A stretch of DNA of 39,433 bases, taken from a virus (Duplodnaviria; Heunggongvirae; Uroviricota; Caudoviricetes). A program made the translations under genes and the position numbers. Shown here one piece after another: positions 1 to 30,733 of the stretch (positions within the stretch are counted from its first letter, which is position 1; every line of letters starts with the position of its first letter). Below the pieces are notes generated by a model. It was not told where the DNA came from. It did not search any database and saw nothing but the letters and a program-made list of their open reading frames with translations. The stretch lies in the IMG/VR virus record IMGVR_UViG_2597489870_000003, one strand, 5' to 3'.

Positions 1-549
1 ATGCAATTTAATATCCCTACGTTGCTTACACTGTTCCGTGTCATCCTTATCCCATTCTTTGTATTGGTCTTTTATCTGCCTGTCACCTGGTCGCCGTTTG
101 CCGCCGCGCTCATTTTCTGCGTCGCGGCGGTGACTGACTGGTTCGATGGTTTTCTGGCACGCCGCTGGAACCAGAGTACCCGGTTTGGTGCTTTCCTTGA
201 CCCTGTAGCAGATAAAGTTCTCGTGGCAATCGCCATGGTGCTGGTAACCGAGCATTATCACAGCTGGTGGGTGACCCTACCGGCGGCAACGATGATCGCC
301 CGTGAAATTATTATTTCTGCGCTACGCGAATGGATGGCGGAGTTGGGTAAACGCAGTAGCGTGGCTGTTTCCTGGATTGGGAAAGTGAAAACCACTGCCC
401 AGATGGTGGCGTTGGCCTGGCTGCTGTGGCGTCCGAACATTTGGGTTGAGTACGCCGGTATTGCACTTTTCTTTGTGGCTGCGGTACTGACTCTGTGGTC
501 AATGTTGCAATATTTGAGCGCTGCGCGTGCAGATTTGCTTGATCAGTGA
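1..549 (+). CDS. pgsA: Phosphatidylglycerophosphate synthase (CDP-diacylglycerol--glycerol-3-phosphate 3-phosphatidyltransferase)
   Basis: 182-aa ORF matching enterobacterial PgsA end to end as recalled; followed by the glyW-cysT-leuZ tRNA cluster as in E. coli. Confidence 0.95.
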
Positions 550-700
550 TCGTTTCGGCGTAATTTTCAGCAAACGATCAAAAGTGGTGAAAAATATCGT
601 TGACTCATCGCGCCAGGTAAGTAGAATGCAACGCATCGAACGGCGGCACTGATTGCCAGACGATAATAAAATCAAGTGATTAACTGATTGCTTGATGAAT

Positions 701-776
<76 letters not shown>

Positions 777-830
777 GTTTAAAAGACATCGGCCTCAAGC
801 GGATGTCTGGCTGAAAGGCCTGAAGAATTT

Positions 831-904
831 GGCGCGTTAACAAAGCGGTTATGTAGCGGATTGCAAATCCGTCTAGTCCGGTTCGACTCCGGAACGCGCC
901 TCCA
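831..904 (+). tRNA. cysT: tRNA-Cys (anticodon GCA)
   Basis: GGCGCGTTAACAAAGCGG...TTGCAAATCC...GGTTCGACTCCGGAACGCGCCTCCA; 74 nt. Confidence 0.95.
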
Positions 905-916
905 CTTTCTTCCCGA

Positions 917-1003
917 GCCCGGATGGTGGAATCGGTAGACACAAGGGATTTAAAATCCCTCGGCGTTCGCGCTGTGCGGGTTCAAGTCCCGCTCCGGGTA
1001 CCA
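917..1003 (+). tRNA. leuZ: tRNA-Leu (anticodon TAA), long variable arm
   Basis: GCCCGGATGGTGGAATCGGTAGACACAAGGGATTTAAAATCCC...GGGTTCAAGTCCCGCTCCGGGTACCA; 87 nt. Confidence 0.93.
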
Positions 1004-1045
1004 TGGGAAAGATAAGAATAAAATCAAAGCAATAAGCAGTGTCGT

Positions 1046-1070
1046 GAAACCACCTTCGGGTGGTTTTTTT
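1046..1070 (+). terminator. Rho-independent terminator of the tRNA operon
   Basis: GAAACCACCTTCGGGTGGTTTTTTTG: GC stem with TTCG loop followed by T-run. Confidence 0.8.
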
Positions 1071-1543
1071 GTATTTGTATTTTGTTAAATGGCGGTAAAG
1101 TGGCGATGGTGTGGCGATATGCAGAAATAATGATAGTACACGTCTGTTTAAACTCTAAGGGTGAAGCAAAACTCTCCTGCAACTCATCTGCATTTCGCAT
1201 ATTGAACTAGGGCCTTGGTTAAACCAAAGTTTTTTCTGGGATCTTCCCACTCAACTTCATTTTTCCTCCTACCATCCACCAAAAGGTGTCTGCGCTACTC
1301 TATCTTTTTTAATCTGACAACATCCTGAGAAAAAGACAAATTCGTTAGATTTACTGTCTTTCTGCTGCCTCGAATGCTGATGTCTGCAGCACTGATAATA
1401 ACTCTATCTCTTTGATATAGATCTTTTTTTTGATGAATTGCACGGCATATTATCGTGATTGCACCTTCTTGTTAAAGGTGTTGTACTCCTCATCTCGATT
1501 TTATGATGTGGGCTATGATTGGTTAGTAATAGAGTGTATCGGT

Positions 1544-1825
1544 ATGCGATGTGGTTTATTAATGGCAATCTGCCTTTGTTTGGTATCTTTTAGTGGGTAT
1601 GCAGCAACAGGAAAGTCAGATGCTCAGATCAAGAAAGAAATAATTAAAGAATCCATTGAATCTTATCCAGGCAATTGTGCGTGTCCGTATAATCATGCAA
1701 GGAATGGTAGTAGATGTGGTGGACGCAGTGCATATAGCCGTACTGGAGGGTATGACGTGGTATGTTATGAAAGAGATGTTACCGATGAAATGATCCGGCA
1801 ATGGAAGCAGGAGAATGCTGAGTAA
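1544..1825 (+). CDS. Hypothetical small secreted Cys-rich protein (islet gene)
   Basis: ORF in AT-rich islet; internal Met followed by hydrophobic signal-like segment (MRCGLLMAICLCLVSFSGYAA) and Cys-rich mature part (CxCPYN...RCGG...VCYE). Start codon uncertain; track ORF begins at 1430. Confidence 0.4.
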   Translation: MRCGLLMAICLCLVSFSGYAATGKSDAQIKKEIIKESIESYPGNCACPYNHARNGSRCGGRSAYSRTGGYDVVCYERDVTDEMIRQWKQENAE

Positions 1826-1892
1826 TCTCTTTTAACTGATTTGTTGTGCGAGCATTTTGTGCAGTTAACAGCTCACTAGCTAGTGAGAGTTC

Positions 1893-1935
1893 CAAAAAGA
1901 AACCCCGCAGTTTTTACGCTGCGGGGTTGTTATTC
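1893..1935. terminator. Bidirectional hairpin terminator between the islet ORF and the hok transcript
   Basis: CCCCGCAG-loop-CTGCGGGG stem flanked by an A-run (plus side) and T-rich stretch; sits between convergent units. Confidence 0.5.
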
Positions 1936-2014
1936 ATGCCAATGAGATAGGGTGCCTTATCGGCCTTACCCTAGCAACCGATTGACGGGGAGTTGCCTCC
2001 CCGTCGCGGTTTCC

Positions 2015-2155
2015 TTACTGCTTACACTGTAAGAACGCCGCAAACTCCGCTCCCCAGAAGCTCATCCGTATTTCACACAGCGAACCGTGCAGCATCCAGA
2101 TGATGAGGATTACCGTCACGCAGAACGTGATGGCCGTAAGCGATTTTTGCGACAT
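2015..2155 (-). CDS. Hok/Gef-family type I toxin (small membrane peptide)
   Basis: 46-aa ORF not in the track (too short), translated by hand: MSQKSLTAITFCVTVILIIWMLHGSLCEIRMSFWGAEFAAFLQCKQ. Single hydrophobic helix, then SLCEIR and E-x-AAFL-x-CK motifs as in HokA/HokC; AAGGAG Shine-Dalgarno 8 nt upstream; hairpin directly after the stop. Confidence 0.65.
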   Translation of the reverse strand: MSQKSLTAITFCVTVILIIWMLHGSLCEIRMSFWGAEFAAFLQCKQ

Positions 2156-2340
2156 AGCGCTTGCTCCTTTGTTGGAGAGGCGCTAACCTATCACTTGCTA
2201 GGTTGACGGGTTAGGGCCTCGGTTAAACAGAAATGTTTTCCGGGGCCTTTCCACATCCGGCCTTCGGGTATTCCCTCCGACCATCAGCCGAAAGGCACCC
2301 GCACGTAATCTATCGCTTTTTTGTTACTCCGGCAATTCTG
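2156..2340. promoter_or_regulatory. Predicted hok mRNA leader (mok/sok control region); antisense Sok RNA expected on the + strand
   Basis: Position and length fit the hok-family architecture (about 430-nt mRNA from about 2330 to the 1900 terminator); candidate + strand promoter TTGACG-N15-TAAACA near 2203-2229. Not verified. Confidence 0.3.
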
Positions 2341-2344
2341 CCTG

Positions 2345-2605
2345 TTAATTCTGAGGTAAAGGCAAACTCATCTGATTGTTTCCCCTGTGTGAAGCTGGCA
2401 GCTCATGCCACGGGATACCTTCTGATGAGTGAACGCCGGAGGCGTGTTTCGATGTGAATTTATGGAAAGCTTCCAGTGTTGAGAAGCATACGCCGCATTC
2501 CAGGTTGTTACACTGGTAATACTTTTGCCGCACGGTGTTTGAATCATTTTCCGGACGACTGGTGCGGATACGGGCAGATGCGCCACAAAGCGGACAACGG
2601 AACAT
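2345..2605 (-). CDS. ogr: Ogr/Delta-family zinc-finger late-gene transcriptional activator
   Basis: N-terminus MFRCPLCG...RTSR...YYQCNNLECG matches P2 Ogr (MFHCPLC...RTSR...HQCQNVNC); four-Cys zinc finger. Confidence 0.85.
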   Translation of the reverse strand: MFRCPLCGASARIRTSRPENDSNTVRQKYYQCNNLECGVCFSTLEAFHKFTSKHASGVHSSEGIPWHELPASHRGNNQMSLPLPQN

Positions 2606-2647
2606 AGCGACCTCCCTTAACGTGGTGCTGCCGCTATTCTAAGTTGC

Positions 2648-3492
2648 TCACTCTGTTTCCGCTATCCATTCCGGGATTTTTGCCTCAAGCTCAAGCTGCG
2701 TGGTAAAGCCGCTGTTATCAATGGTGTGCCCGGCTTTTGCAATAATCCAGTCCTGATTATCAATCTCGCTTTTAAATCCTGTTACCGTGCCATGCATTTC
2801 GGGGTAGAGTTCTGCTCGTCCACGTGCCAGCGTGATGGAGAATGATGCGGCTCCGCGTTGTAGTTGTTGCCACTTTGCCGCCGCTGCGCGTCTTGCTGCC
2901 TGCTCGTTCTGATAAGTCTTGCGTAACACAAACACATTGCCTTCCGCGCCTTCCATATAATCACCTTCACGGCTGCTGCTTTTCTCTTTTTTCGGTTTTG
3001 GCGGTTTGCGGCGTTTCACGCTGACTTTTTTCTTTTTCCCGTAATTAAGATCAAGCCAGTAAGCGCGTACCCCCGTATACGCTTCGCGGTCAGCAATGCG
3101 GAACTGATGGCGATCGCCGCTGCTGCGTGTGATGGCGAACGATGGCAACGGCTGGCCCTGTGCGTTCACGCCACCGCCGGGCATGATGAATAACAGATTG
3201 CCGCTTTTTACCGTGGTGATTGCGCCCAGCATTTCCGCCATGCGCGTAAGGAAGGACATGTCGCTTTCTTCGGTCTGGTCGGCGTGGTCGATTTCGATAT
3301 CCATCAGCATTTCGCTGATTTGCGGTTTCAGACCATACCGATGAGCGATGGCGGATACCACACGCTCAACGGTCACATCATGCCAGGACACCTCACGTTT
3401 AACGTTAAATTCATCCCGAAAATCTGCGCTTCTGGCTGAAACAGTCAGCCTGTCCGGCGGTCCTTCGTGAGCGATTTCATCAACAATGTAAG
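2648..3492 (-). pseudogene. P2 gpD-like tail protein (late control D), C-terminal portion, separated from its N-terminus by IS30
   Basis: Translation ...SARSADFRDEFNVKREVSWHDVT...KRRKPPKPKKEK...EGDYMEGAEGNVF...FTTQLELE matches the P2 gpD C-terminal region; reading frame runs unbroken up to the IS30 boundary. Confidence 0.85.
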
Positions 3493-4713
3493 TGTAGATT
3501 CAAGTGGTCAACGCAACAGTTATGTGAAAACATGGGGTTGCGGAGGTTTTTTGAATGAGACGAACATTTACAGCAGAGGAAAAAGCCTCTGTTTTTGAAC
3601 TATGGAAGAACGGAACAGGCTTCAGTGAAATAGCGAATATCCTGGGTTCAAAACCCGGAACGATCTTCACTATGTTAAGGGATACTGGCGGCATAAAACC
3701 CCATGAGCGTAAGCGGGCTGTAGCTCACCTGACACTGTCTGAGCGCGAGGAGATACGAGCTGGTTTGTCAGCCAAAATGAGCATTCGTGCGATAGCTACT
3801 GCGCTGAATCGCAGTCCTTCGACGATCTCACGTGAAGTTCAGCGTAATCGGGGCAGACGCTATTACAAAGCTGTTGATGCTAATAACCGAGCCAACAGAA
3901 TGGCGAAAAGGCCAAAACCGTGCTTACTGGATCAAAATTTACCATTGCGAAAGCTTGTTCTGGAAAAGCTGGAGATGAAATGGTCTCCAGAGCAAATATC
4001 AGGATGGTTAAGGCGAACAAAACCACGTCAAAAAACGCTGCGAATATCACCTGAGACAATTTATAAAACGCTGTACTTTCGTAGCCGTGAAGCGCTACAC
4101 CACCTGAATATACAGCATCTGCGACGGTCGCATAGCCTTCGCCATGGCAGGCGTCATACCCGCAAAGGCGAAAGAGGTACGATTAACATAGTGAACGGAA
4201 CACCAATTCACGAACGTTCCCGAAATATCGATAACAGACGCTCTCTGGGGCATTGGGAGGGCGATTTAGTCTCAGGTACAAAAAACTCTCATATAGCCAC
4301 ACTTGTAGACCGAAAATCACGTTATACGATCATCCTCAGACTCAGGGGCAAAGATTCTGTCTCAGTAAATCAGGCTCTTACCGACAAATTCCTGAGTTTA
4401 CCGTCAGAACTCAGAAAATCACTGACATGGGACAGAGGAATGGAACTGGCCAGACATCTAGAATTTACTGTCAGTACCGGCGTTAAAGTTTACTTCTGCG
4501 ATCCTCAGAGTCCCTGGCAGCGGGGAACAAATGAGAATACAAATGGGCTAATTCGGCAGTACTTTCCTAAAAAGACATGTCTTGCCCAATATACTCAACA
4601 TGAACTAGATCTGGTTGCTGCTCAGCTAAACAACAGACCGAGAAAGACACTGAAGTTCAAAACACCGAAAGAGATAATTGAAAGGGGTGTTGCATTGACA
4701 GATTGAATCTACA
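3493..4713 (+). mobile_element. IS30 insertion sequence (1221 bp)
   Basis: Left end TGTAGATTCAAGTGGTCAACGCAACAG, right end ...CAGATTGAATCTACA; flanked by 2-bp direct repeat AG (3491-3492 and 4714-4715). Confidence 0.95.
3555..4706 (+). CDS. insI: IS30 transposase
   Basis: 383-aa ORF matching IS30 transposase as recalled (N-terminal HTH, DDE motif region). Confidence 0.95.
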   Translation: MRRTFTAEEKASVFELWKNGTGFSEIANILGSKPGTIFTMLRDTGGIKPHERKRAVAHLTLSEREEIRAGLSAKMSIRAIATALNRSPSTISREVQRNRGRRYYKAVDANNRANRMAKRPKPCLLDQNLPLRKLVLEKLEMKWSPEQISGWLRRTKPRQKTLRISPETIYKTLYFRSREALHHLNIQHLRRSHSLRHGRRHTRKGERGTINIVNGTPIHERSRNIDNRRSLGHWEGDLVSGTKNSHIATLVDRKSRYTIILRLRGKDSVSVNQALTDKFLSLPSELRKSLTWDRGMELARHLEFTVSTGVKVYFCDPQSPWQRGTNENTNGLIRQYFPKKTCLAQYTQHELDLVAAQLNNRPRKTLKFKTPKEIIERGVALTD

Positions 4714-4986
4714 AGTGCCTTTTTCTGTCAGCGGTTCTCCTTTCCAGCCAATGAGAACCGTCAGGCGCGCGCCCCGTGCCCGTGGCGGTAGCAGCAACTG
4801 ACCATCCGCATCATCCAGCGTGATGGTGAGCTGGTCCGCCTCAAATCCCCGGTTGTCGGTCAGTGACAGGCTCATCAGGCGCTCTGCCACGCCTGACAGC
4901 GTTTTACCCTCCGCGAGAATATCAAAATCCGGCATTTTTACGGGGTCTGTGCCCTGACTGAGCAATTGCATGGTGGTGTCGGTCAT
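4714..4986 (-). pseudogene. P2 gpD-like tail protein, N-terminal portion (upstream of IS30)
   Basis: MTDTTMQLLSQGTDPVKMPDFDILAEGK...LSLTDNRGFEADQL...IGWKG matches the gpD N-terminus; in frame with the C-terminal part once IS30 and one AG copy are removed. Confidence 0.8.
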
Positions 4987-5143
4987 CTGCTCCCTCCCTG
5001 TGCGGCATGGTCGCATGTGCGTGCGGAGGGGGTTACTGCTTTTTGTTGTCGCCGTGGCGGGAGAACGGCGCAGGGGTGAGATTACGCGCGTGGTGGGTGA
5101 TGATTGTTGCCGAATCATTTAACGGATACAAGGGGCTGAAGCT
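4987..5143. promoter_or_regulatory. Divergent intergenic region between D (-) and FI (+); presumed late promoters
   Basis: 157-bp gap between divergent gene starts, GC-rich with dyad symmetry (CGCCG...CGGCG); no clean TGT-N12-ACA Ogr box found. Confidence 0.3.
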
Positions 5144-6328
5144 ATGAGTGAAACTCGTTTTCATGGTGCCCGTGTTACGGAAAATACCGACCTGGTAACA
5201 GCGATTAACGATGTTGATTCCAGCGTTATCGGTATCGTGGCAACGGCGGATGATGCGGACGCGAAGCTGTTCCCGCTGAACAAGCCCACACTGCTGACCC
5301 GCGTCAATGACGTGCTGGGAAAATGCGGGACAACGGGGACGCTTTATCGTGCGCTTAAGGCCATCGCAGACCAGGTGAGCACAAAGGTGATCGTCGTTCG
5401 CGTGGCTGAACACAAAGAAGAAGACGGAAAAACGCAGGATCAACTGGTTATCGGTGGTTCTGAATCTGACGGCAGCTATACGGGGATGTATGCGCTGCTT
5501 GTTGCAGAGCAGGATGAAAGCATCGGATACCGTCCGCGTATTCTGGCCGCGCCGGAGCTGGACACGGAGGCGGTAACAAAATCCCTGTGCGTGATTGCGG
5601 GTAAACTGCGCGCGTTTGTGTATGCCTCATGTCACGGCTGTAACACGATGGCTGAGGCGATTACCTACCGCCAGAAATTCAACGAACGTGAGGTGATGCT
5701 CTTATGGCCGGACTTCATCGCCTACAACCCGAAAAGTGGCAAAAACGAAACGTTCCCCGCGCCTGCCTATGCGTGCGGCCTTCGTGCGTACATTGACCAT
5801 GAGCAGGGCTGGCACAAATCGCTGTCCAACGTTCCTGTTAAAAATGTGCTGGGAATGTCCAGGCATGTGTTCTGGTCGTTGCAGGCCGAAGACAGTGATG
5901 CCAACAGCCTCAACAACAAAGAAATCACGACCATTATTCGTCGCAACGGGTTCCGCTTCTGGGGCAACCGCACACCGGAAACGAACGCCTACATCTTTGA
6001 GGTGTATACCCGAACCGCACAGGTGCTGGCTGATTCAATTGCAGAAGCGCAGTTTGAAACCATCGACAGTCCACTGACGCCTGCGAACGTGAAGGATGTT
6101 ATCAGTGCCATCAGGGCAAAACTGGATTCACTGGTTACTGCCGGGAAACTGATTGGCGCGGAGTGCTGGTATGACGTGGTGGATAACAGCACCACGGATT
6201 TACGTCAGGGGCGTGTGCGTATTCGCTACAAATATACGCCTGTTCCGCCACTGGAAGACATGGAGCTTTACCAGACGTTTACTGATGAATACTTTGAACC
6301 TGCATTTGCGGTGCTGGGAGGTGCCTGA
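5144..6328 (+). CDS. Tail sheath protein (P2 gpFI-like)
   Basis: 394 aa; matches P2 FI along its length (ADDADA..FPLNKP, LRAF.Y, WPDF.A, GLRA.IDHEQGWHK.LSNV, RRNGFRFWGNRT, YTPVPPLE). Confidence 0.93.
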   Translation: MSETRFHGARVTENTDLVTAINDVDSSVIGIVATADDADAKLFPLNKPTLLTRVNDVLGKCGTTGTLYRALKAIADQVSTKVIVVRVAEHKEEDGKTQDQLVIGGSESDGSYTGMYALLVAEQDESIGYRPRILAAPELDTEAVTKSLCVIAGKLRAFVYASCHGCNTMAEAITYRQKFNEREVMLLWPDFIAYNPKSGKNETFPAPAYACGLRAYIDHEQGWHKSLSNVPVKNVLGMSRHVFWSLQAEDSDANSLNNKEITTIIRRNGFRFWGNRTPETNAYIFEVYTRTAQVLADSIAEAQFETIDSPLTPANVKDVISAIRAKLDSLVTAGKLIGAECWYDVVDNSTTDLRQGRVRIRYKYTPVPPLEDMELYQTFTDEYFEPAFAVLGGA

Positions 6329-10726: not shown

Positions 10727-10765
10727 CAAAAACCGCTAATGGTCAGATTAGCGGTTATTTTGTTT
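10727..10765. terminator. Bidirectional terminator between gpU (+) and invertase (-)
   Basis: AAAAACCGCTAATGGTCAGATTAGCGGTTATTTTGTTT: stem flanked by A-run and T-run. Confidence 0.7.
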
Positions 10766-11342
10766 CCTGACTCTTCTCAATTGTTCCGCTTGGTTCTCCT
10801 GCGGGGTGGTAACGATAAATCGTCGATATACCAATGCCGTAAATTATTGCCAGTTGTTTTCTGTCGTGACCGTTTTTAATCAGCCTTGCTATTTGCTCAT
10901 GCTGTTCTTTTGTCAGCTTCGGTCGACGTCCGCCTGTGCGCCCCCGTGCGCGCGCTGCCGCCAGTCCGGCCAGTGTACGTTCAACAATTAATTCACGTTC
11001 CATTTCAGCCAGGGCCCCCATCACGTGGAAGAAAAAACGCCCCATTGGAGAAGATGTATCTATGCTGTCGGTCAGACTGCGAAAATTAATCCCTCGCTCC
11101 CGTAGTTCCCCGACGAGAGAAATCAGATGTTTCATGCTTCGCCCGAGGCGATCCAGTTTCCAGACAACCAGCGTGTCACCTTTTTGAAGGCGCTTTAAAG
11201 CGCGTTTTAATCCCGGTCGGTCTGTCTTTGTCCCGCTTAATTTATCTTCAAATATCTGTTCACATCCTGCACAAACAAGAGCGTTTCGTTGCAGGTCTGT
11301 ATTCTGGTCATTTGTTGATACCCTTACATAGCCAATCAGCAC
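10755..11342 (-). CDS. Serine recombinase, DNA invertase (Gin/Pin/Cin/Hin family)
   Basis: VLIGYVRVSTNDQNTDLQRNAL...VWKLDRLGRSMKHLISLV...C-terminal HTH (IGISTIYRY); catalytic Ser in the VRVST motif. Likely GTG start at 11342 (track ORF starts at a TTG at 11360). Confidence 0.92.
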   Translation of the reverse strand: MLIGYVRVSTNDQNTDLQRNALVCAGCEQIFEDKLSGTKTDRPGLKRALKRLQKGDTLVVWKLDRLGRSMKHLISLVGELRERGINFRSLTDSIDTSSPMGRFFFHVMGALAEMERELIVERTLAGLAAARARGRTGGRRPKLTKEQHEQIARLIKNGHDRKQLAIIYGIGISTIYRYHPAGEPSGTIEKSQETK

Positions 11343-11396
11343 ACTGAATCTCCCGTCCAAAAGCGCAAATCATGCCATGCAGGCCAGAAACGGCCA

Positions 11397-11422
11397 TTAT
11401 CTAAAACCTCGGTTTACAGGAA
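11397..11422. repeat. gix/hix-like 26-bp inversion crossover site (proximal to invertase)
   Basis: TTATCTAAAACCTCGGTTTACAGGAA; inverted partner at 14324-14349; close to the Gin/Hin crossover-site consensus. Confidence 0.85.
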
Positions 11423-11446
11423 ACGGTAAACAGGGCCAGGAACGCC

Positions 11447-12283
11447 GTGCAAAAGAATGGCGATACCTTGTCCGGTGGGCTTACTTTTGAAAACGACTCA
11501 ATCCTTGCCTGGATTCGAAATACTGACTGGGCGAAGATTGGATTTAAAAATGATGCCGACAGCGATACTGATTCATACATGTGGTTTGAAACAGGCGACA
11601 ACGGCAATGAATATTTCAAATGGAGAAGCAAACAAAGCACCACAACAAAAGACCTGATGACGCTGAAATGGGATGCACTAAATATTCTTGTTAATGCCGT
11701 CATTAATGGCAGCCTTGGAGTTGGTACGACGAATGCGTTAGGTGGTAGCTCTATTGTTCTTGGTGATAATGATACCGGATTTAAACAGAATGGAGACGGT
11801 ATTCTTGATGTTTACGCTAATAGTCAGCGAGTATTCCGCTTTCAGAATGGAGTTGCTATTGCTTTTAAAAACATTCAGGCAGGTGATAGTAAAAAAATCT
11901 CGCTATCCAGCTCCAACACCTCCACAAAGAATGTAACGTTTAATTTATGGGGTGCTTCAACCCGTCCAGTAGTTGCAGAGTTAGGCGATGAGGCAGGATG
12001 GCATTTCTATAGCCAGCGAAATACAGATAACTCGGTAATATTTTCTGTTAACGGTCAGATACAGCCCAGCAACTGGGGGAATTTTGATTCACGCTATGTA
12101 AAAGATGTTCGCCTGGGTACGCGAGTTGTTCAATTGATGGCGCGTGGTGGTCGTTATGAAAAAGCCGGACACGCAATTACCGGATTAAGAATCATTGGTG
12201 AAGTAGATGGCGATGATGAAGCCATCTTCAGACCAATACAAAAATACATCAATGGCACATGGTATAACGTAGCACAGGTGTAA
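11447..12283 (+). CDS. Alternative tail-fibre C-terminal (receptor-binding) cassette, currently unfused
   Basis: The frame stays open back into the crossover site (...LGLQETVN encoded at 11407-11430), so inversion would fuse it in frame to the constant N-terminal part of the fibre gene. Confidence 0.8.
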   Translation: MQKNGDTLSGGLTFENDSILAWIRNTDWAKIGFKNDADSDTDSYMWFETGDNGNEYFKWRSKQSTTTKDLMTLKWDALNILVNAVINGSLGVGTTNALGGSSIVLGDNDTGFKQNGDGILDVYANSQRVFRFQNGVAIAFKNIQAGDSKKISLSSSNTSTKNVTFNLWGASTRPVVAELGDEAGWHFYSQRNTDNSVIFSVNGQIQPSNWGNFDSRYVKDVRLGTRVVQLMARGGRYEKAGHAITGLRIIGEVDGDDEAIFRPIQKYINGTWYNVAQV

Positions 12284-12286
12284 ATT

Positions 12287-12814
12287 ATGCAGCATTTAAA
12301 AAATATTAAGTCAGGAAATCCAAAAACAAAAGAGCAATATCAGCTAACAAAGAATTTTGATGTTATCTGGTTATATACAGAAGACGGTAAAAACTGGTAT
12401 GAGGAAGTAAATAGCTTTCAGGAAGACACCATAAAGATTGTTTACGACGAAAATAATATTATTGTTGCCATAACCAAAGATGCCTCAACGCTTAATCCCG
12501 AAGGCTTTAGTGTCGTTGAGATTCCAGATATAACAGTCAATCGTCGTGCCGATGATTCAGGGAAGTGGATGTTTAAGGACGGAACTGTGGTTAAGCGGAT
12601 TTATACAGCAGACGAACAGCAACAACAGGCCGAATCACAAAAGGCCGCATTGCTTTCCGAAGCTGAATCAGTCATCCAGCCACTGGAACGCGCTGCCAGG
12701 CTGAATATGGCAACAGACGAGGAGCGCACACGACTGGAAGCATGGGAACGCTACAGTGTTCTGGTCAGCCGTGTGGATACGGCAAATCCTGAATGGCCAC
12801 AAAAGCCTGAATAA
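12287..12814 (+). CDS. Tail fibre assembly chaperone (alternative copy, gpG/U'-like)
   Basis: 175 aa; about 60% identical to the oppositely oriented paralogue at 12843-13376 ([22 protein letters not shown]...). Confidence 0.85.
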
Positions 12815-12842
12815 AAATTAAGGCCCGCTATCGGGCCTTGTC
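12815..12842. terminator. Bidirectional terminator between the two convergent fibre-assembly genes
   Basis: AAGGCCCGCTATCGGGCCTT hairpin. Confidence 0.6.
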
Positions 12843-13376
12843 TCATTCAGGTTGTTCGGGAAATGTTACTGGCAGGCTGGAAGTGTCTGTAGATTCGACT
12901 TTCTGCGCAAAGAGTATCCACTCTGTTAATTTTTGTTTACTCTCGTCGGAAATGATGCCCAGCCGTAGCTGTGAGTCCCATAACTGGGTTTTATCCCTGA
13001 CAAGTTGCAACAGGCTTTGCTTTTCATTCTCTGCCTGCTGCCTCTGCTCTTCCCCGGTATAAGTTCGCTTTATCACTACGCCATCTTTGAACATCCATTT
13101 ACCCGAAATATCAGCCCGGCGATTTGCTGTAATATCAGGTAATTCAACGACGCTTGCGCCTTCTGGATTAATTGCTGAAACATCCTTTTCAATACAAATA
13201 ATAACGCCGTTACGGTCATAGACCATTTTCAACGTATCAGGCTGAAAGTTCTTTTGTTCCTCATACCAGTTTTTTCCATCATCTGAATAAAGCCATTTGA
13301 TGTTAAATTGTTTCGTTAGCTGGTATTGCTCTTTTGTTTTAGGGTTGCCAGCAGTAATGTTTTTTAAGTGCATCAT
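12843..13376 (-). CDS. Tail fibre assembly chaperone (P2 gpG-like), active orientation
   Basis: 177 aa directly downstream of the fibre gene. Confidence 0.88.
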   Translation of the reverse strand: MMHLKNITAGNPKTKEQYQLTKQFNIKWLYSDDGKNWYEEQKNFQPDTLKMVYDRNGVIICIEKDVSAINPEGASVVELPDITANRRADISGKWMFKDGVVIKRTYTGEEQRQQAENEKQSLLQLVRDKTQLWDSQLRLGIISDESKQKLTEWILFAQKVESTDTSSLPVTFPEQPE

Positions 13377-13378
13377 AA

Positions 13379-15736
13379 TTAAATACTCCCCGCGTTATAC
13401 CACCTTCCATTAATGCAATACTGAATTGGCCTTGCCTGAGTTGTATCAATTAATTCATCACGGTTTCCGTTAACTGAACCCGTAACGACATAACCTGACC
13501 TGTCAGACCAGCCGGGACCATTCCATGTCTGAACAGATGACAGACCGCCCAGGCGAATACCTGTAATAAACCTTGAGTTACATTCTGCCTGCGTATATGC
13601 ACCAACATCCCCCGCAGAGGGTTTGCGGGTTGTGGTGTAAAACTCTGACCAGTTAGCTTCAAAGCCATAACCATCACGCGCTGAACGATAAAAGATACCG
13701 CCGTTTTTATAATTCACGCGGAACTGTACAGCAGGGCAACTCCCCGCATTCATATTAAAGTGGAGGATTAATGTCGATGCGCCACTGATATCTGCATCAT
13801 AAACGCCGCTATTCCAGTTCCAGCCAACAGCTTTATCATTTGCAACCCTGCTTCCTGTTTGCCCTAAAGCAAATGCAGGCTGCTGGTTTTTCGTGTTGTA
13901 GTCTCGTCGCCAGCCAGGAGCATAAGCATCACCATGATTAATATAGGTGAATTGAGCGTTAGTAATTCCGCCACCGCTGGATGTACTCGGCGTAGTAACG
14001 CGTATGGTCATTGCGCCGCGAGTGCCAATAACTTCCACCACAGCACCTGCAAGACAAATATTTCCGCAACCTGTATCTGTAATGACCTTATTGTTTGCAT
14101 AAGCCCATGAGCCTTTGCACATCCAGTAAGGATGGTTAAATGCCCCCTGACTCTCCAGCCACGAAATGAATTGTGCGGTTGTCCAGGTCTGACTATCGCC
14201 ACCAATATTCAGCCATGCGCTATATGCGCGGCAGGCACCAATATTTTTGGTGAAGGTATCTTTTCCTGGAATATCTGCGCCGTTCTGTTTTTTCTGTAAT
14301 GCACCAGAAGCCTGATTTACCGTTTCCTGTAAACCGAGGTATTCGATAACAGCGGCAACGGTCGATTTCGCAAGAATATCCCGCCCGACTTTTGTCAGGG
14401 TTGCCAGGCTGGCGACATCATTCCCCGTAAAATACGGAAACTTGTCTGCCGCAGTAGCAAGCCCGGCCAGCGCCGTCAGGGTGGCATCTTTCGGTTGCTT
14501 ACCCGCAAGCGCTTTAGTCATGGTGGTCGCAAAATTCGGGTCGTTTCCCAGCGCCGCCGCTAACTCGTTCAACGTATTCAGTGCGTCAGGCGACGAGTCT
14601 ACAAGTGCGGCAATCGCGGCCATCACATAAGCCGTGCTTGCGATCTGAGTATTATTAGTCCCTTTTGGCGTTGTTGGCGTTCCGGTCAGTGCAGGACTGT
14701 TTAAGGGCGCTTTCTTGTTCGTTTCATCCATTACCGCCTTAACAGCTTTTGGCGTCGCAGCCAGCGTTTCAGATGTGCTGTTAGTGGCGCTACTGAGCTG
14801 AACTATCCCTTTTCGTGCCGTCGTTGCGTCCTGAGCGGTATATTTTGCGTTAGCAAGGTCATATGCGGCCTTTACTGCTTTCGGCGTTGCAGCCAGCGTT
14901 TCAGATGTGCTGTTAGTGGCGCTACTGAGCTGAACTATCCCTTTTCGCGCAGTGGTAGCGTCCTGTGCGGTGTATTTGCCATTAGCCAGGTCATATGCCG
15001 CCTTAACAGACTTTGGCGTTGCCGCAAGCGTTTCAGACGTGCTGTTGGTGGCGCTACTGAGCTGAACTATCCCTTTCCGCGCAGTGGTTGCGTCCTGTGC
15101 GGTGTATTTGCCATTAGCCAGGTCATATGCTGCCTTAACAGCCTTAGGTGTCGCAGCCAGCGTTTCAGATGTGCTGTTAGTGGCGCTGCTAAGTTGAACA
15201 AAGCCTTTTGCGGTCAGCGAGGCGTCCGGGTGACGTCGTGACTGTTCATGCTCTTTCAGTTTGTCATCCACGTAATCCACTGTGGCCATTACCATGGTGT
15301 TATCCACGGTAAGCGCCATAGTGGCAGTGCTGGATACGGTCAGAATGGTGCGAAATGTTTGTGCACGTCCTGACCCTTCGGCAACGGTTGGCTTGTAACT
15401 TTCGGCAGTATTGCCTACTGCGATTAAATCGCCGTGCTCATCAAACACACCAATTTCCCGGATCCAGAATCCGCCCGTTTCAGGAGGAATAACCAGCTCT
15501 GCAATAATGCGGTTCTGATGTGTTGCGTCCAGGATGACGCGATTAACAGTGTGTCGCCACACCTCATGCACAAGACGGGTCTGCTTACTGTCTGGCGAGG
15601 GCAACGTGCCGCCGCCGTCACCCACGGCCATATGAGTCAGGCGGACCGGTTTACCATCTGGTGTGGCTGCCTGCGCTAATTTTTTTTCACCCGTATCGGT
15701 GATAACGGTTTTAAATTTTCGTGTTGTGGTACTCAT
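13379..15736 (-). CDS. Tail fibre protein (P2 gpH-like) with invertible C-terminal domain
   Basis: 785 aa; N-terminus MSTTTRKFKTVITDTGEKKLA...MAVGDGGG matches P2 H; four 44-aa tandem repeats; crossover site lies inside the gene at 14324-14349. Confidence 0.93.
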   Translation of the reverse strand: MSTTTRKFKTVITDTGEKKLAQAATPDGKPVRLTHMAVGDGGGTLPSPDSKQTRLVHEVWRHTVNRVILDATHQNRIIAELVIPPETGGFWIREIGVFDEHGDLIAVGNTAESYKPTVAEGSGRAQTFRTILTVSSTATMALTVDNTMVMATVDYVDDKLKEHEQSRRHPDASLTAKGFVQLSSATNSTSETLAATPKAVKAAYDLANGKYTAQDATTARKGIVQLSSATNSTSETLAATPKSVKAAYDLANGKYTAQDATTARKGIVQLSSATNSTSETLAATPKAVKAAYDLANAKYTAQDATTARKGIVQLSSATNSTSETLAATPKAVKAVMDETNKKAPLNSPALTGTPTTPKGTNNTQIASTAYVMAAIAALVDSSPDALNTLNELAAALGNDPNFATTMTKALAGKQPKDATLTALAGLATAADKFPYFTGNDVASLATLTKVGRDILAKSTVAAVIEYLGLQETVNQASGALQKKQNGADIPGKDTFTKNIGACRAYSAWLNIGGDSQTWTTAQFISWLESQGAFNHPYWMCKGSWAYANNKVITDTGCGNICLAGAVVEVIGTRGAMTIRVTTPSTSSGGGITNAQFTYINHGDAYAPGWRRDYNTKNQQPAFALGQTGSRVANDKAVGWNWNSGVYDADISGASTLILHFNMNAGSCPAVQFRVNYKNGGIFYRSARDGYGFEANWSEFYTTTRKPSAGDVGAYTQAECNSRFITGIRLGGLSSVQTWNGPGWSDRSGYVVTGSVNGNRDELIDTTQARPIQYCINGRWYNAGSI
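14324..14349. repeat. gix/hix-like 26-bp inversion crossover site (inside tail fibre gene)
   Basis: TTCCTGTAAACCGAGGTATTCGATAA, the inverted partner of 11397-11422 (23 of 26 positions). Confidence 0.85.
14719..15246. repeat. Four tandem 132-bp coding repeats within the tail fibre gene
   Basis: AGCGTTTCAGA(T/C)GTGCTGTT(A/G)GTGGCGCT recurs at 14763, 14895, 15027 and 15159; encodes repeated QDATTARKGIVQLSSATNSTSETLAATPKAVKAAYDLANGKYTA. Confidence 0.9.
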
Positions 15737-27122: not shown

Positions 27123-27626
27123 TTATTGATAGTGTTTTATGTTCAGATAATGCCCGATGACTTTGTCATGCAGCTCCACCGATTTTGAGAACGACAGCGA
27201 CTTCCGTCCCAGCCGTGCCAGGTGCTGCCTCAGATTCAGGTTATGCCGCTCAATTCGCTGCGTATATCGCTTGCTGATTACGTGCAGCTTTCCCTTCAGG
27301 CGGGATTCATACAGCGGCCAGCCATCCGTCATCCATATCACCACGTCAAAGGGTGACAGCAGGCTCATAAGACGCCCCAGCGTCGCCATAGTGCGTTCAC
27401 CGAATACGTGCGCAACAACCGTCTTCCGGAGCCTGTCATACGCGTAAAACAGCCAGCGCTGGCGCGATTTAGCCCCGACGTATCCCCACTGTTCGTCCAT
27501 TTCCGCGCAGACGATGACGTCACTGCCCGGCTGTATGCGCGAGGTTACCGACTGCGGCCTGAGTTTTTTAAATGGCGGAAAATCGTGTTGAGGCCAACGC
27601 CCATAATGCGGGCGGTTGCCCGGCAT
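27123..27626 (-). CDS. insB: IS1 transposase InsB reading frame (expressed as InsAB' by frameshift)
   Basis: 167-aa ORF matching IS1 InsB as recalled. Confidence 0.93.
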
Positions 27627-29773: not shown

Positions 29774-30733
29774 TTACTCCTTGTTCATTGCGTACAGCCC
29801 ATTAACCAGAGCAAACTGTGGCACCCCGTCCGCGATGAAAGTCGCATTAACTCCGCAGGCTTCGCGGATAGCGGGTGCCACAATCTCCGCCCCTCCACCG
29901 ACAACCATCACCCGCCCGTAACCGGAAAAACCCGCCAGCGCGCGGATCACTCGTTGTTTCAGTGTCTCCTCCTTTTCACGAATAACCGCCATCAGGCTGT
30001 TGTAATGCGCGTCATTGTGAATGTGCTGGCGCAGCCAGGCTTCATCGTGACGGTGCTCAATAATGGTATTGGCGATGTGGTGACTGGTACGCATACCGTT
30101 AGTGGCCATCACCGACAGCACGGCATCAGCCATCAGGGAAACGCCTACGTTTGGATCGCAAAACACCTGGCTGATACCTGCCAGCTGCCCCTGAACCTTT
30201 GCCACATCCAGCGTGGTTCCGCCCAAATCCACAATCAGCAGGGATTCAAACGGACTCATGTCAGCCAGTGCCTTAAAGCCAGCCGGAATGGATTCAGGCA
30301 TAACCCGTACGTTACGGATAGTGAATGCTTCGCCGTTCTGGTACTCCACCGGGCGCATGACGTTCGCTTTTTTGCGGTTGATGTTGGCCATGTCCGGCTG
30401 TGCGTTTGTGTCGAAATACTCGCTCAGTGGCAGGGTGACAACCACATCCACCTCCTGTGGCGTGATGCCTGATTTGACCAGCGCGTGATGAATGGCGATT
30501 ACATTCACATCGCTGTACTGGTATTGCGTGTCAGTCGTCTGGACAAAACGATCGCTGACCGGATCAAAGCCATAGCGCACGCCATCAAGCATGTAGTTCG
30601 CGGGATGCGTGCCACCGAACGGCGCAGACCATTCCGACTTGAAGCTGTTCGGGCTGATGGCGTTGCGGCGTTCGCCGTTCTCAGTCCATGCCAGCTTGAT
30701 GTTGGTGGAGCCGTCGTCGATACAAATTTTCAT
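29774..30733 (-). CDS. parM: ParM/StbA-like actin-fold partition ATPase
   Basis: 319 aa; IDDGSTNIKL.W, ISPNSFK.EW, YSDVNV.A.HHAL, PESIPAG, DLGGTTLD, GGGAE, LVNG.Y motifs match plasmid R1 ParM/StbA as recalled. Confidence 0.85.
   Translation of the reverse strand: MKICIDDGSTNIKLAWTENGERRNAISPNSFKSEWSAPFGGTHPANYMLDGVRYGFDPVSDRFVQTTDTQYQYSDVNVIAIHHALVKSGITPQEVDVVVTLPLSEYFDTNAQPDMANINRKKANVMRPVEYQNGEAFTIRNVRVMPESIPAGFKALADMSPFESLLIVDLGGTTLDVAKVQGQLAGISQVFCDPNVGVSLMADAVLSVMATNGMRTSHHIANTIIEHRHDEAWLRQHIHNDAHYNSLMAVIREKEETLKQRVIRALAGFSGYGRVMVVGGGAEIVAPAIREACGVNATFIADGVPQFALVNGLYAMNKE

Follow-up and report, generated by a model that had tools for sequence, protein, structure and literature searches.

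A very probable hok/sok-family type I toxin-antitoxin cassette, apparently without mok, carried as cargo of a P88-like prophage in leuZ

The best-described relative of the locus considered here is hok/sok (parB) of plasmid R1, which encodes a small Hok-family membrane toxin on an mRNA of approximately 400 nt. In the R1 mRNA the 5' tac element has two mutually exclusive partners, an arrangement described as the hok mRNA switch (PMC9841398); these partners are the 3' fbi element and an upstream ucb box, and a stable hairpin lies upstream of the 3' tail that is trimmed. Moreover, R1 makes Hok only if mok is translated as far as the hok ribosome-binding site (PMC9841398; PMC4147584), and toxicity is lost when mok carries stop codons upstream of hok (PMC9841398). 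Loci of this family are also borne on prophages, e.g. hokW-sokW on the Stx2 prophage Sp5 of E. coli O157:H7 Sakai, an experimentally characterised type I toxin-antitoxin (TA) system that is RNase III- and Hfq-dependent (PMC8621323). According to a preprint, hok genes show enrichment in prophages, and toxicity was seen for 42 of the 45 Hok homologues assayed (bioRxiv 10.1101/2025.08.07.668861). Two other described loci are relevant for the comparison, hokA/sokA of E. coli K-12, which IS150 disrupts and for which an in-frame mokA is annotated, and gp52 of phage P88 with its counterparts in other members of Xuanwuvirus (PHROG 251), which are situated downstream of ogr and D.

We report the computational analysis of such a locus in a 39,433-nt stretch of viral DNA (IMG/VR record IMGVR_UViG_2597489870_000003; hereafter the window), and we put the probability at roughly 0.85 that the region holds a hok/sok-family type I TA cassette with its structure intact, which a P88-like (P2-like, Xuanwuvirus) prophage in leuZ carries as accessory cargo. 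With R1 it has in common the small Hok-family toxin, the length of the mRNA, the pairing of a 5' tac with a 3' fbi or an upstream ucb box, the stable hairpin that precedes the 3' tail, a candidate antisense promoter facing the hok ribosome-binding site (-10 TA(A/T)CCT and a 17-nt spacer; reconstructed for R1), an antisense RNA made up of a single-stranded tail and one hairpin (predicted in the window) and the conserved leader hairpin GAGGC...GCCUC. It differs from R1 in that the proteins are only 28% identical (52 aa in R1, 46 aa in the window), and in being phage-borne without a mok ORF whereas the R1 locus is plasmid-borne with mok. The closest named Hok is K-12 HokA (43% identity, E = 2e-11), which is also the best NCBIfam match; the two share the C-terminal AAFLxCK and a WM motif preceding the SLCE box, but the window copy is uninterrupted and has no mok. 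The prophage-borne hokW-sokW resembles the window locus in its location, while HokW, with 51 aa, belongs to another Hok cluster (PMC8621323) than the 46-aa type. The label 'MokW-like', under which the window protein family is filed, was for this reason rejected as a statement of identity with the characterised HokW; a relative of the window Hok is the 46-aa type that is encoded near lom in Stx2a phages, which match the cassette at approximately 83%. Finally, the Xuanwuvirus (Peduoviridae) phages P88, P88_4B11, Chuche, Shae_phiSM, 500465-2 and PhiR44_2 carry the same cassette with 94-96% DNA identity, and we found no essential difference between P88 gp52 and the window copy.

The hok coding sequence (2155-2015, minus strand) specifies 46 aa and a stop codon (product MSQKSLTAITFCVTVILIIWMLHGSLCEIRMSFWGAEFAAFLQCKQ). 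That this ORF belongs to the Hok family, as the original prediction had it, was borne out by Pfam PF01848 (HOK_GEF; 30.1 bits, E = 3.7e-7, above the gathering score of 22), for which profile positions 5-42 of 42 aligned to Hok residues 7-44. PHROG 251 ('MokW-like host killing') matched over the full length (82.8 bits, E = 2.5e-23), and the RefSeq entry for the same ORF in E. coli ETEC H10407 is WP_000078920.1, 'Hok/Gef family protein'. In the alignment the peptide has the conserved Hok-family residues C12, T14, L26-C27-E28, E37 and C44, to be read against the published conserved positions C16, T18, L30-C31-E32, E41 and C/Y48 in logo numbering (bioRxiv 10.1101/2025.08.07.668861); five of the residues are invariant across an alignment of seven sequences, HokB, HokC, HokD and HokE among them. 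Two NCBIfam models stayed below threshold, NF007290 (HokA equivalog; 35.8 bits, cut-off 89) and NF007279 (general Hok subfamily; 23.6 bits, cut-off 73). Judged by these scores, the peptide is a Hok-family member, yet not HokA.

For comparison we used 55 aligned loci from E. coli, E. albertii, Salmonella, Klebsiella and phages (54 distinct sequences). Variable sites are fewer in the coding sequence (15 of 138) than in the leader (41 of 145) and the 3' UTR (27 of 65), and within the E. coli group the variable sites of hok comprise 13 synonymous and 2 nonsynonymous positions. Against divergent copies (E. coli, Salmonella and Klebsiella) the dN/dS ratio of the peptide ranges between 0.11 and 0.39. 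By this pattern of substitution the peptide is under purifying selection, and the cassette is therefore probably functional.

The putative hok promoter (2335-2307, minus strand) consists of a -35 element TTGCCG (2335-2330), a 17-nt spacer and a -10 element TAGATT (2312-2307), with G at 2300 (minus strand) as the predicted +1. The -10 element (TAGATT/TAGAAT) stays 6-7 nt 5' of GGGTGCC in 12 of 14 loci taken from different genomic contexts; as in R1, where the hok -10 element TATGAT was mapped by mutation (PMC9841398), it reads TANNNT and is positioned at -12 to -7. Neither this promoter nor that of sok (see below) was picked up by a sigma-70 consensus promoter scan, and both match the consensus weakly; they were assigned on the basis of position, conservation and comparison with R1. 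The full-length hok mRNA is predicted to run from 2300 to approximately 1895 (minus strand), i.e. approximately 405 nt. The hok-type transcript that had been proposed is thus supported with respect to its promoter and its tac/fbi and tac/ucb pairings, while its length was corrected from the approximately 430 nt first suggested.

Three other elements of this transcript were found as anticipated. Specifically, the Shine-Dalgarno (SD) sequence AAGGAG (2169-2164, minus strand) is positioned 8 nt before the hok ATG, a hairpin follows the stop codon (2006-1983, minus strand; perfect 9-bp stem GACGGGGAG/CUCCCCGUC), and a two-way intrinsic terminator occupies 1893-1928 (both strands), with a G+C-rich hairpin at 1901-1928 and a T-run after it on each strand. 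The post-stop hairpin (helix 16) has 9 pairs that are 99.8% paired among the 55 loci, 5 of them with compensatory changes, and it is the likely 3'-protecting stem of a processed hok mRNA; its role in stopping exonucleases is drawn by analogy from R1 (PMC9841398). The terminator, for which the minus-strand tail after the hairpin is TTTCTTTTT, closes both the hok mRNA (minus strand) and the transcript of an ORF at 1544-1825 (plus strand). Compensatory changes were noted in 7 of the 10 pairs of its stem (helix 19; 55 loci), and in some relatives it has been exchanged for other sequence.

The 406-nt hok RNA has a minimum free energy of -182.3 kcal/mol (z = -6.6 relative to shuffled sequences). Applied to the 55 loci, the full-length fold gives standard pairs in 93.1% of the cells compared to 38-44% when the partners were slid, and changes on both sides were detected at 31 pairs; because the structures come from the sequence of the window, they have an advantage over the slid controls, a bias from which the compensatory changes are free. 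In this fold the mRNA 5' end, the tac element (2300-2286, minus strand; GGGUGCCUUUCGGCU), pairs with the fbi element (1965-1950, minus strand; GCCGAUAAGGCACCC) in a helix of 15 pairs that is 96.4% paired among the 54 distinct sequences, with compensatory changes at 4 pairs. For an RNA shortened as far as the post-stop hairpin, folding is predicted to move tac onto a ucb-like box (2251-2242, minus strand; GAAAGGCCCC), which has its counterpart in the stem that closes the Rfam RF01794 consensus. This alternative helix (extending to approximately 2242-2254) has 12 pairs, 96.9% paired and 4 with compensatory changes, and the tac columns that covary with ucb are the same ones that covary with fbi. 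Two exclusive tac partners, both backed by covariation in the alignment, are the signature of an R1-type hok mRNA switch.

Two additional helices bear on access to the mRNA. A downstream box (1982-1970, minus strand; UUGCUAGG...), resembling the dcb lock, pairs with 2202-2190 in the Sok-target loop to form the long-range helix 7, with 12 pairs that are 85.1% paired and 5 with compensatory changes; as an example, where the window has CCUAGCAA/UUGCUAGG, Salmonella has CCUUCAACAA/UUGUUGAAGG. In the full-length fold the SD is held in a hairpin (2180-2164, minus strand) together with the anti-SD CCUCUCC (2180-2174), and this helix 8 (11 pairs) is 96.5% paired among the 55 loci. The predicted 3'-shortened fold dissolves the anti-SD hairpin and GCGCCUC pairs with GAGGC instead; this opening of the SD without mok comes from minimum-free-energy predictions for an assumed 3' end.

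A candidate sok promoter is located on the plus strand at 2161-2189, with TTGCTC (2161-2166) as the -35 element, a 17-nt spacer and TAACCT (2184-2189) as the -10 element. Its -35 element sits opposite the hok SD, and it is the positional equivalent of TTGCGC-17-TATCCT in the R1-type locus, where the position of the Sok promoter is a reconstruction made in this analysis. Every one of the 55 loci keeps the spacer at 17 nt, and the hexamers are conserved as well, the -10 element being TAACCT in 52 and TATCCT in 3 (Salmonella); the match to the sigma-70 consensus is poor (6 of 12 positions). From this promoter a Sok RNA of approximately 55-60 nt is predicted (2196-2255, plus strand; 3' end uncertain), with a single-stranded 5' tail and a hairpin at 2213-2249 (-24 kcal/mol, z = -3.2). 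The hairpin complements the conserved and covarying helices 5 and 6 of the hok mRNA and is followed by just UUUCC, a tail that is poor for a terminator. Nowhere does the cassette vary more than in the region of the single-stranded 5' tail, as might be expected for a determinant of specificity, and such variability would fit the presence in Salmonella of tandem arrays with two or three of these loci. Accordingly, of the antisense sok gene that had been placed in the leader, a conserved promoter-like site and a hairpin at the expected place were recovered, while the consensus match is weak and Sok has the standing of a predicted gene.

Taken together, these elements suggest how the cassette might operate. 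A weak promoter (TTGCCG-17-TAGATT) would yield the approximately 405-nt hok mRNA, which would be locked in an inert state by the pairing of tac (2300-2286) with fbi (1965-1950), with the second helix (2202-2190/1982-1970) hiding the Sok-target loop and the anti-SD hairpin holding the hok ribosome-binding site. Slow 3' trimming to the post-stop hairpin would strip off fbi and the downstream box, tac would then switch to ucb (2251-2242), and the leader would refold. The refolded RNA would be bound by the short-lived Sok (approximately 2196-2255, plus strand) and destroyed by RNase III; once Sok is no longer made, it would instead be translated into the 46-aa Hok, which would enter the inner membrane and collapse it. 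Unlike in R1, there is no mok, and refolding is predicted to free the hok ribosome-binding site directly. In this scheme the sequence features and RNA pairings are those of the window, while killing and its kinetics are taken from the R1 paradigm, and the 3' exonucleolytic processing and RNase III cleavage are presumed because the 3' hairpin is conserved and by reference to R1 and hokW (PMC9841398; PMC8621323).

With respect to its genomic setting, bases 1-5,345 of the window are 100% identical to the chromosome of E. coli ETEC H10407. An att repeat at 949-1072 (plus strand), comprising the 3' half of leuZ and the 3'ETS-leuZ sRNA, marks the prophage boundary. Homology to K-12 ends at 1072, directly after the 3'ETS-leuZ terminator, and H10407 has a second att copy (124 nt, 96.8% identical) approximately 110 nt past the integrase gene with which the window ends. 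A direct-repeat search within the window gave no att pair because the second copy is just past the window end. Since the K-12 homology stops and an att copy is present beyond the integrase, the prophage begins at 1073. The cassette had been placed between leuZ and the prophage end; on this map it is instead cargo between att and ogr, 820-1,260 nt inside the prophage, and the P88-like phage genomes carry it as well. Homology to P88 and Chuche starts at 1892-1894, and 1073-1893 is the variable cargo slot of this phage.

The gene order in P88-like phages is int, variable cargo, hok, ogr and D, and what lies downstream of the fbi box or the terminator differs from phage to phage; the att-ogr cargo of Chuche, for instance, includes a Com/methyltransferase pair. 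In 77 of the 80 IMG/VR contigs closest in Hok sequence (with the alignment of relatives as the query), ogr lies directly upstream of hok and in the same orientation. A Salmonella P2-like prophage also has the order D-ogr-hok, despite 61% Hok identity, and the same cassette is found away from phage late genes on the Klebsiella chromosome and in the Salmonella tandem arrays. Of 5,426 complete E. coli genomes, 1,549 contain a match to a 496-nt region, as do 198 phage records. The prophage in the window carries an IS30 copy in gene D and an IS1 copy, and because of the IS30 it is probably unable to make functional tails or to spread as a virion.

Which role the cassette may have is less certain than its identity. 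Tentatively, we regard as the most likely one that of an addiction module making it costly to lose the prophage or its att-proximal cargo, and the corrected map, with the cassette as cargo next to att in a prophage that by its IS30 insertion is probably crippled, fits such a role. We consider it unlikely that the cassette has no current role at all.

A role in lysis has been reported for hokW-sokW, where the type I TA system speeds host killing and phage release on induction: deletion of the locus halves the Sp5 yield and Hok appears post-SOS as sokW RNA vanishes (PMC8621323). The position of the window cassette directly downstream of ogr, the late-gene activator, and on the same strand would suit this, since late read-through could raise the level of hok mRNA, and the ogr-hok order in 77 of the 80 related viral contigs and in the Salmonella P2-like prophage points in the same direction. 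The characterised HokW is, however, a different protein of 51 aa (PMC8621323), P2-like phages already have holin, endolysin and lysis regulators, and in the Klebsiella chromosome and the Salmonella tandem arrays the cassette occurs away from phage late genes; in the window, where IS30 in gene D makes functional tails improbable, the role would in any case be moot. On balance a lysis-helper role is improbable.

The leader of the cassette departs from that of R1. The overlapping mok frame foreseen in the original prediction is absent: in all frames of the window leader, no ORF starting with ATG, GTG or TTG reaches the hok SD. The leader ORFs start with ATG at 2284 (28 codons) and at 2256 (21 codons) and have their stops 42 and 35 nt before the hok ATG, respectively. 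An in-frame TAG codon, 30 nt upstream of the hok ATG and within a near-invariant GGTTAG/GGATAG, is present in all 55 relatives. A long leader ORF crossing into hok was found in just 13 of the 55 loci, and these 13 begin at two different ATGs or a GTG as a result of small indels. The ATGs at 2284 and 2256 were rejected as conserved substitutes for mok, as their frames and stops shift among close E. coli relatives, and no leader ATG matching either was identified in the Salmonella and Klebsiella copies. An R1-like plasmid variant (L007) and the K-12 mokA annotation suggest a mok that extends hok in frame; the R1 coordinates put mok in another frame (PMC9841398), and all three frames were therefore checked. 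None of the gene calls in the protein database extends Hok N-terminally, and the position of the R1 mok AUG reads AUA in many copies, or other non-start codons. On the aligned sequences, mok is absent from the window copy and none is conserved in the 46-aa subfamily.

Without mok, Hok might by the R1 rules never be made, and the cassette could then be a silent relic that has lost mok and become untranslatable, like the inactivated K-12 hok loci, persisting by hitch-hiking with the prophage. The missing leader ORF and the conserved TAG 30 nt upstream of the ATG can be read in this way, as can the loss of toxicity upon introduction of stop codons in R1 mok (PMC9841398), the decay of the host prophage (IS30 in gene D plus IS1) and a degenerate second hok leader at 1208-1310, which indicates that hok loci decay in this region. 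This remnant, 900 nt away, retains a -10 region and the first approximately 90 nt (71% identity); as it lacks a hok ORF and a sok promoter region and gave no Rfam match, it was rejected as a second active locus. Against a dead relic stand the constraint on the peptide, which persists across copies without a conserved mok (dN/dS 0.11-0.39; 13 versus 2 sites), the compensatory changes that maintain both mutually exclusive RNA folds, and the invariant spacing of the sok promoter, as a silent toxin would not need a conserved antitoxin promoter. The cassette is, moreover, present in phage Chuche, the record of which was sourced from mud and not from a bacterial genome. We therefore regard a silent relic as quite unlikely. 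Rather, the 46-aa, mostly phage-borne Hok subfamily may possibly have dropped mok, with the tac/fbi/ucb switch gating the hok SD directly by way of the anti-SD hairpin (2180-2164), predicted to melt on tac-ucb pairing, and with Sok mainly triggering decay rather than blocking mok translation; this is a tentative model.

Abortive infection, in which a virulent phage stops transcription, Sok decays and Hok kills the cell to the protection of lysogen kin, is a very doubtful role, and the link to phage exclusion drawn originally is weak: the classical claim of T4 exclusion by R1 hok/sok (summarised in PMC13047441) and the variable nature of the att-ogr cargo in P88-like phages speak for it, but a direct re-test from 2026 detected no protection by R1 hok/Sok from either T4 or T7 (PMC13047441), the neighbourhood of defence systems shows no enrichment of hok genes (bioRxiv 10.1101/2025.08.07.668861), and a PADLOC search gave no match for Hok or its neighbours.

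The cassette is already annotated in RefSeq and phage records, where the protein is named, and its class has already been reported as prophage-enriched, so its value as a discovery is small. The apparent absence of mok is the sole point that a specialist might pursue; the set of 55 loci, with two folds supported by covariation, bears on the generality of the R1 rule that mok is required.

A final observation concerns the annotation of such loci. The Rfam family RF01794, named 'sok', matches the window leader end-to-end at 2300-2145 on the hok-sense (minus) strand (47.3 bits, E = 1.5e-8); the Rfam search proposed for sok and hok elements returned this match with a score under the gathering score of 59. 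Scores for the relatives range between 38 and 57 bits. Run against the R1-type plasmid locus, this model gave 87.2 bits, also on the hok-sense strand, with a match that extends from approximately 2 nt upstream of the inferred mRNA start to the hok ATG. RF01794 hence models the hok leader on the sense strand, and because it also matches the window, the window and R1-type leaders are, by this shared profile, homologous. Annotators who call Sok from RF01794 should bear in mind that the model represents the sense-strand hok leader.

In some relatives of the hok cassette on IMG/VR contigs (L015, L022, L052 and L060), approximately 386 nt of unrelated sequence (position about 3206-3592) separate the fbi box, the 3' element of the hok mRNA, from the usual terminator, while in other relatives, e.g. 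L017, L018 and L033, this terminator is wholly substituted. Since some relatives carry either an insert or a substituted terminator beyond fbi, the conserved cassette stops directly after this element. With respect to the 5' part, the Rfam family RF01794, named "sok antitoxin", matches 2145-2300 (-) in the window and 332-503 (+) in the R1-like plasmid hok locus (L007), and in both cases the span lies on the hok-sense strand, beginning at about the 5' end of the mRNA and reaching the start codon of hok. The match therefore reports the hok strand and not the Sok strand.

At 1208-1310 (-), the -10 region of hok and the initial ≈90 nt of the leader recur as a second, degenerate copy, in which 79 of 111 positions are identical to 2322-2212 (71% identity, E-value 8e-8). 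No hok ORF, sok promoter region or Rfam match was found at 1208-1310, and the copy is probably the leftover of a tandem hok locus, comparable to the Salmonella arrays of two to three copies (L100, L101, L104 and L105). The block of cargo at 1073-1893, which is present in 646 of the 5,426 complete genomes of E. coli, also includes a 93-aa ORF (1544-1825, +) whose product carries a signal peptide and contains several cysteine residues, and the two-way terminator is common to this ORF and hok. The ORF matches PHROG 27544 (E-value 1e-58), a family of unknown function, and no family was assigned to it by Pfam or NCBIfam.

The att repeat (949-1072) contains the entire 3'ETS-leuZ sRNA, and in the E. 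coli H10407 chromosome (L004) its second copy is located just beyond the window end; hence, the lysogen has two copies of the sequence of this sponge RNA. Past the second att copy H10407 carries another integrase-bearing island, so that leuZ is a site of tandem integration of elements.

Adjoining the replication gene A, we identified a gene for a ParM/StbA actin-like plasmid-segregation ATPase (29774-30733, -; Pfam StbA_N 274.6 bits, ParM_N 230.2 bits), which P88-like phages keep at 98% identity and annotated as ParM. Both stability loci of plasmid R1 have homologues in this phage type (ParM/StbA and hok/sok), even though it integrates via an integrase.

Two insertion sequences are present in the prophage. 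An IS30 transposase gene (3555-4706) splits the P2-type tail gene D (-) into two pieces (2648-3391 and about 4714-5118), a break likewise annotated by RefSeq in H10407, and functional tails can therefore probably not be made by the prophage. The second is IS1, with its transposase gene at 27123-27626 (-).

Finally, the region 10755-15736 looks like an invertible host-range switch. Beside a serine DNA invertase gene (10755-11360, -), and in the opposite orientation, are an alternative tail-fibre C-terminus (11447-12283, +) and a chaperone (12287-12814, +). These two are directed towards the tail fibre that is expressed (13379-15736) and the chaperone of that fibre (12843-13376). The expressed tail fibre gene has three repeats with a spacing of 132 nt at 14734-15209.
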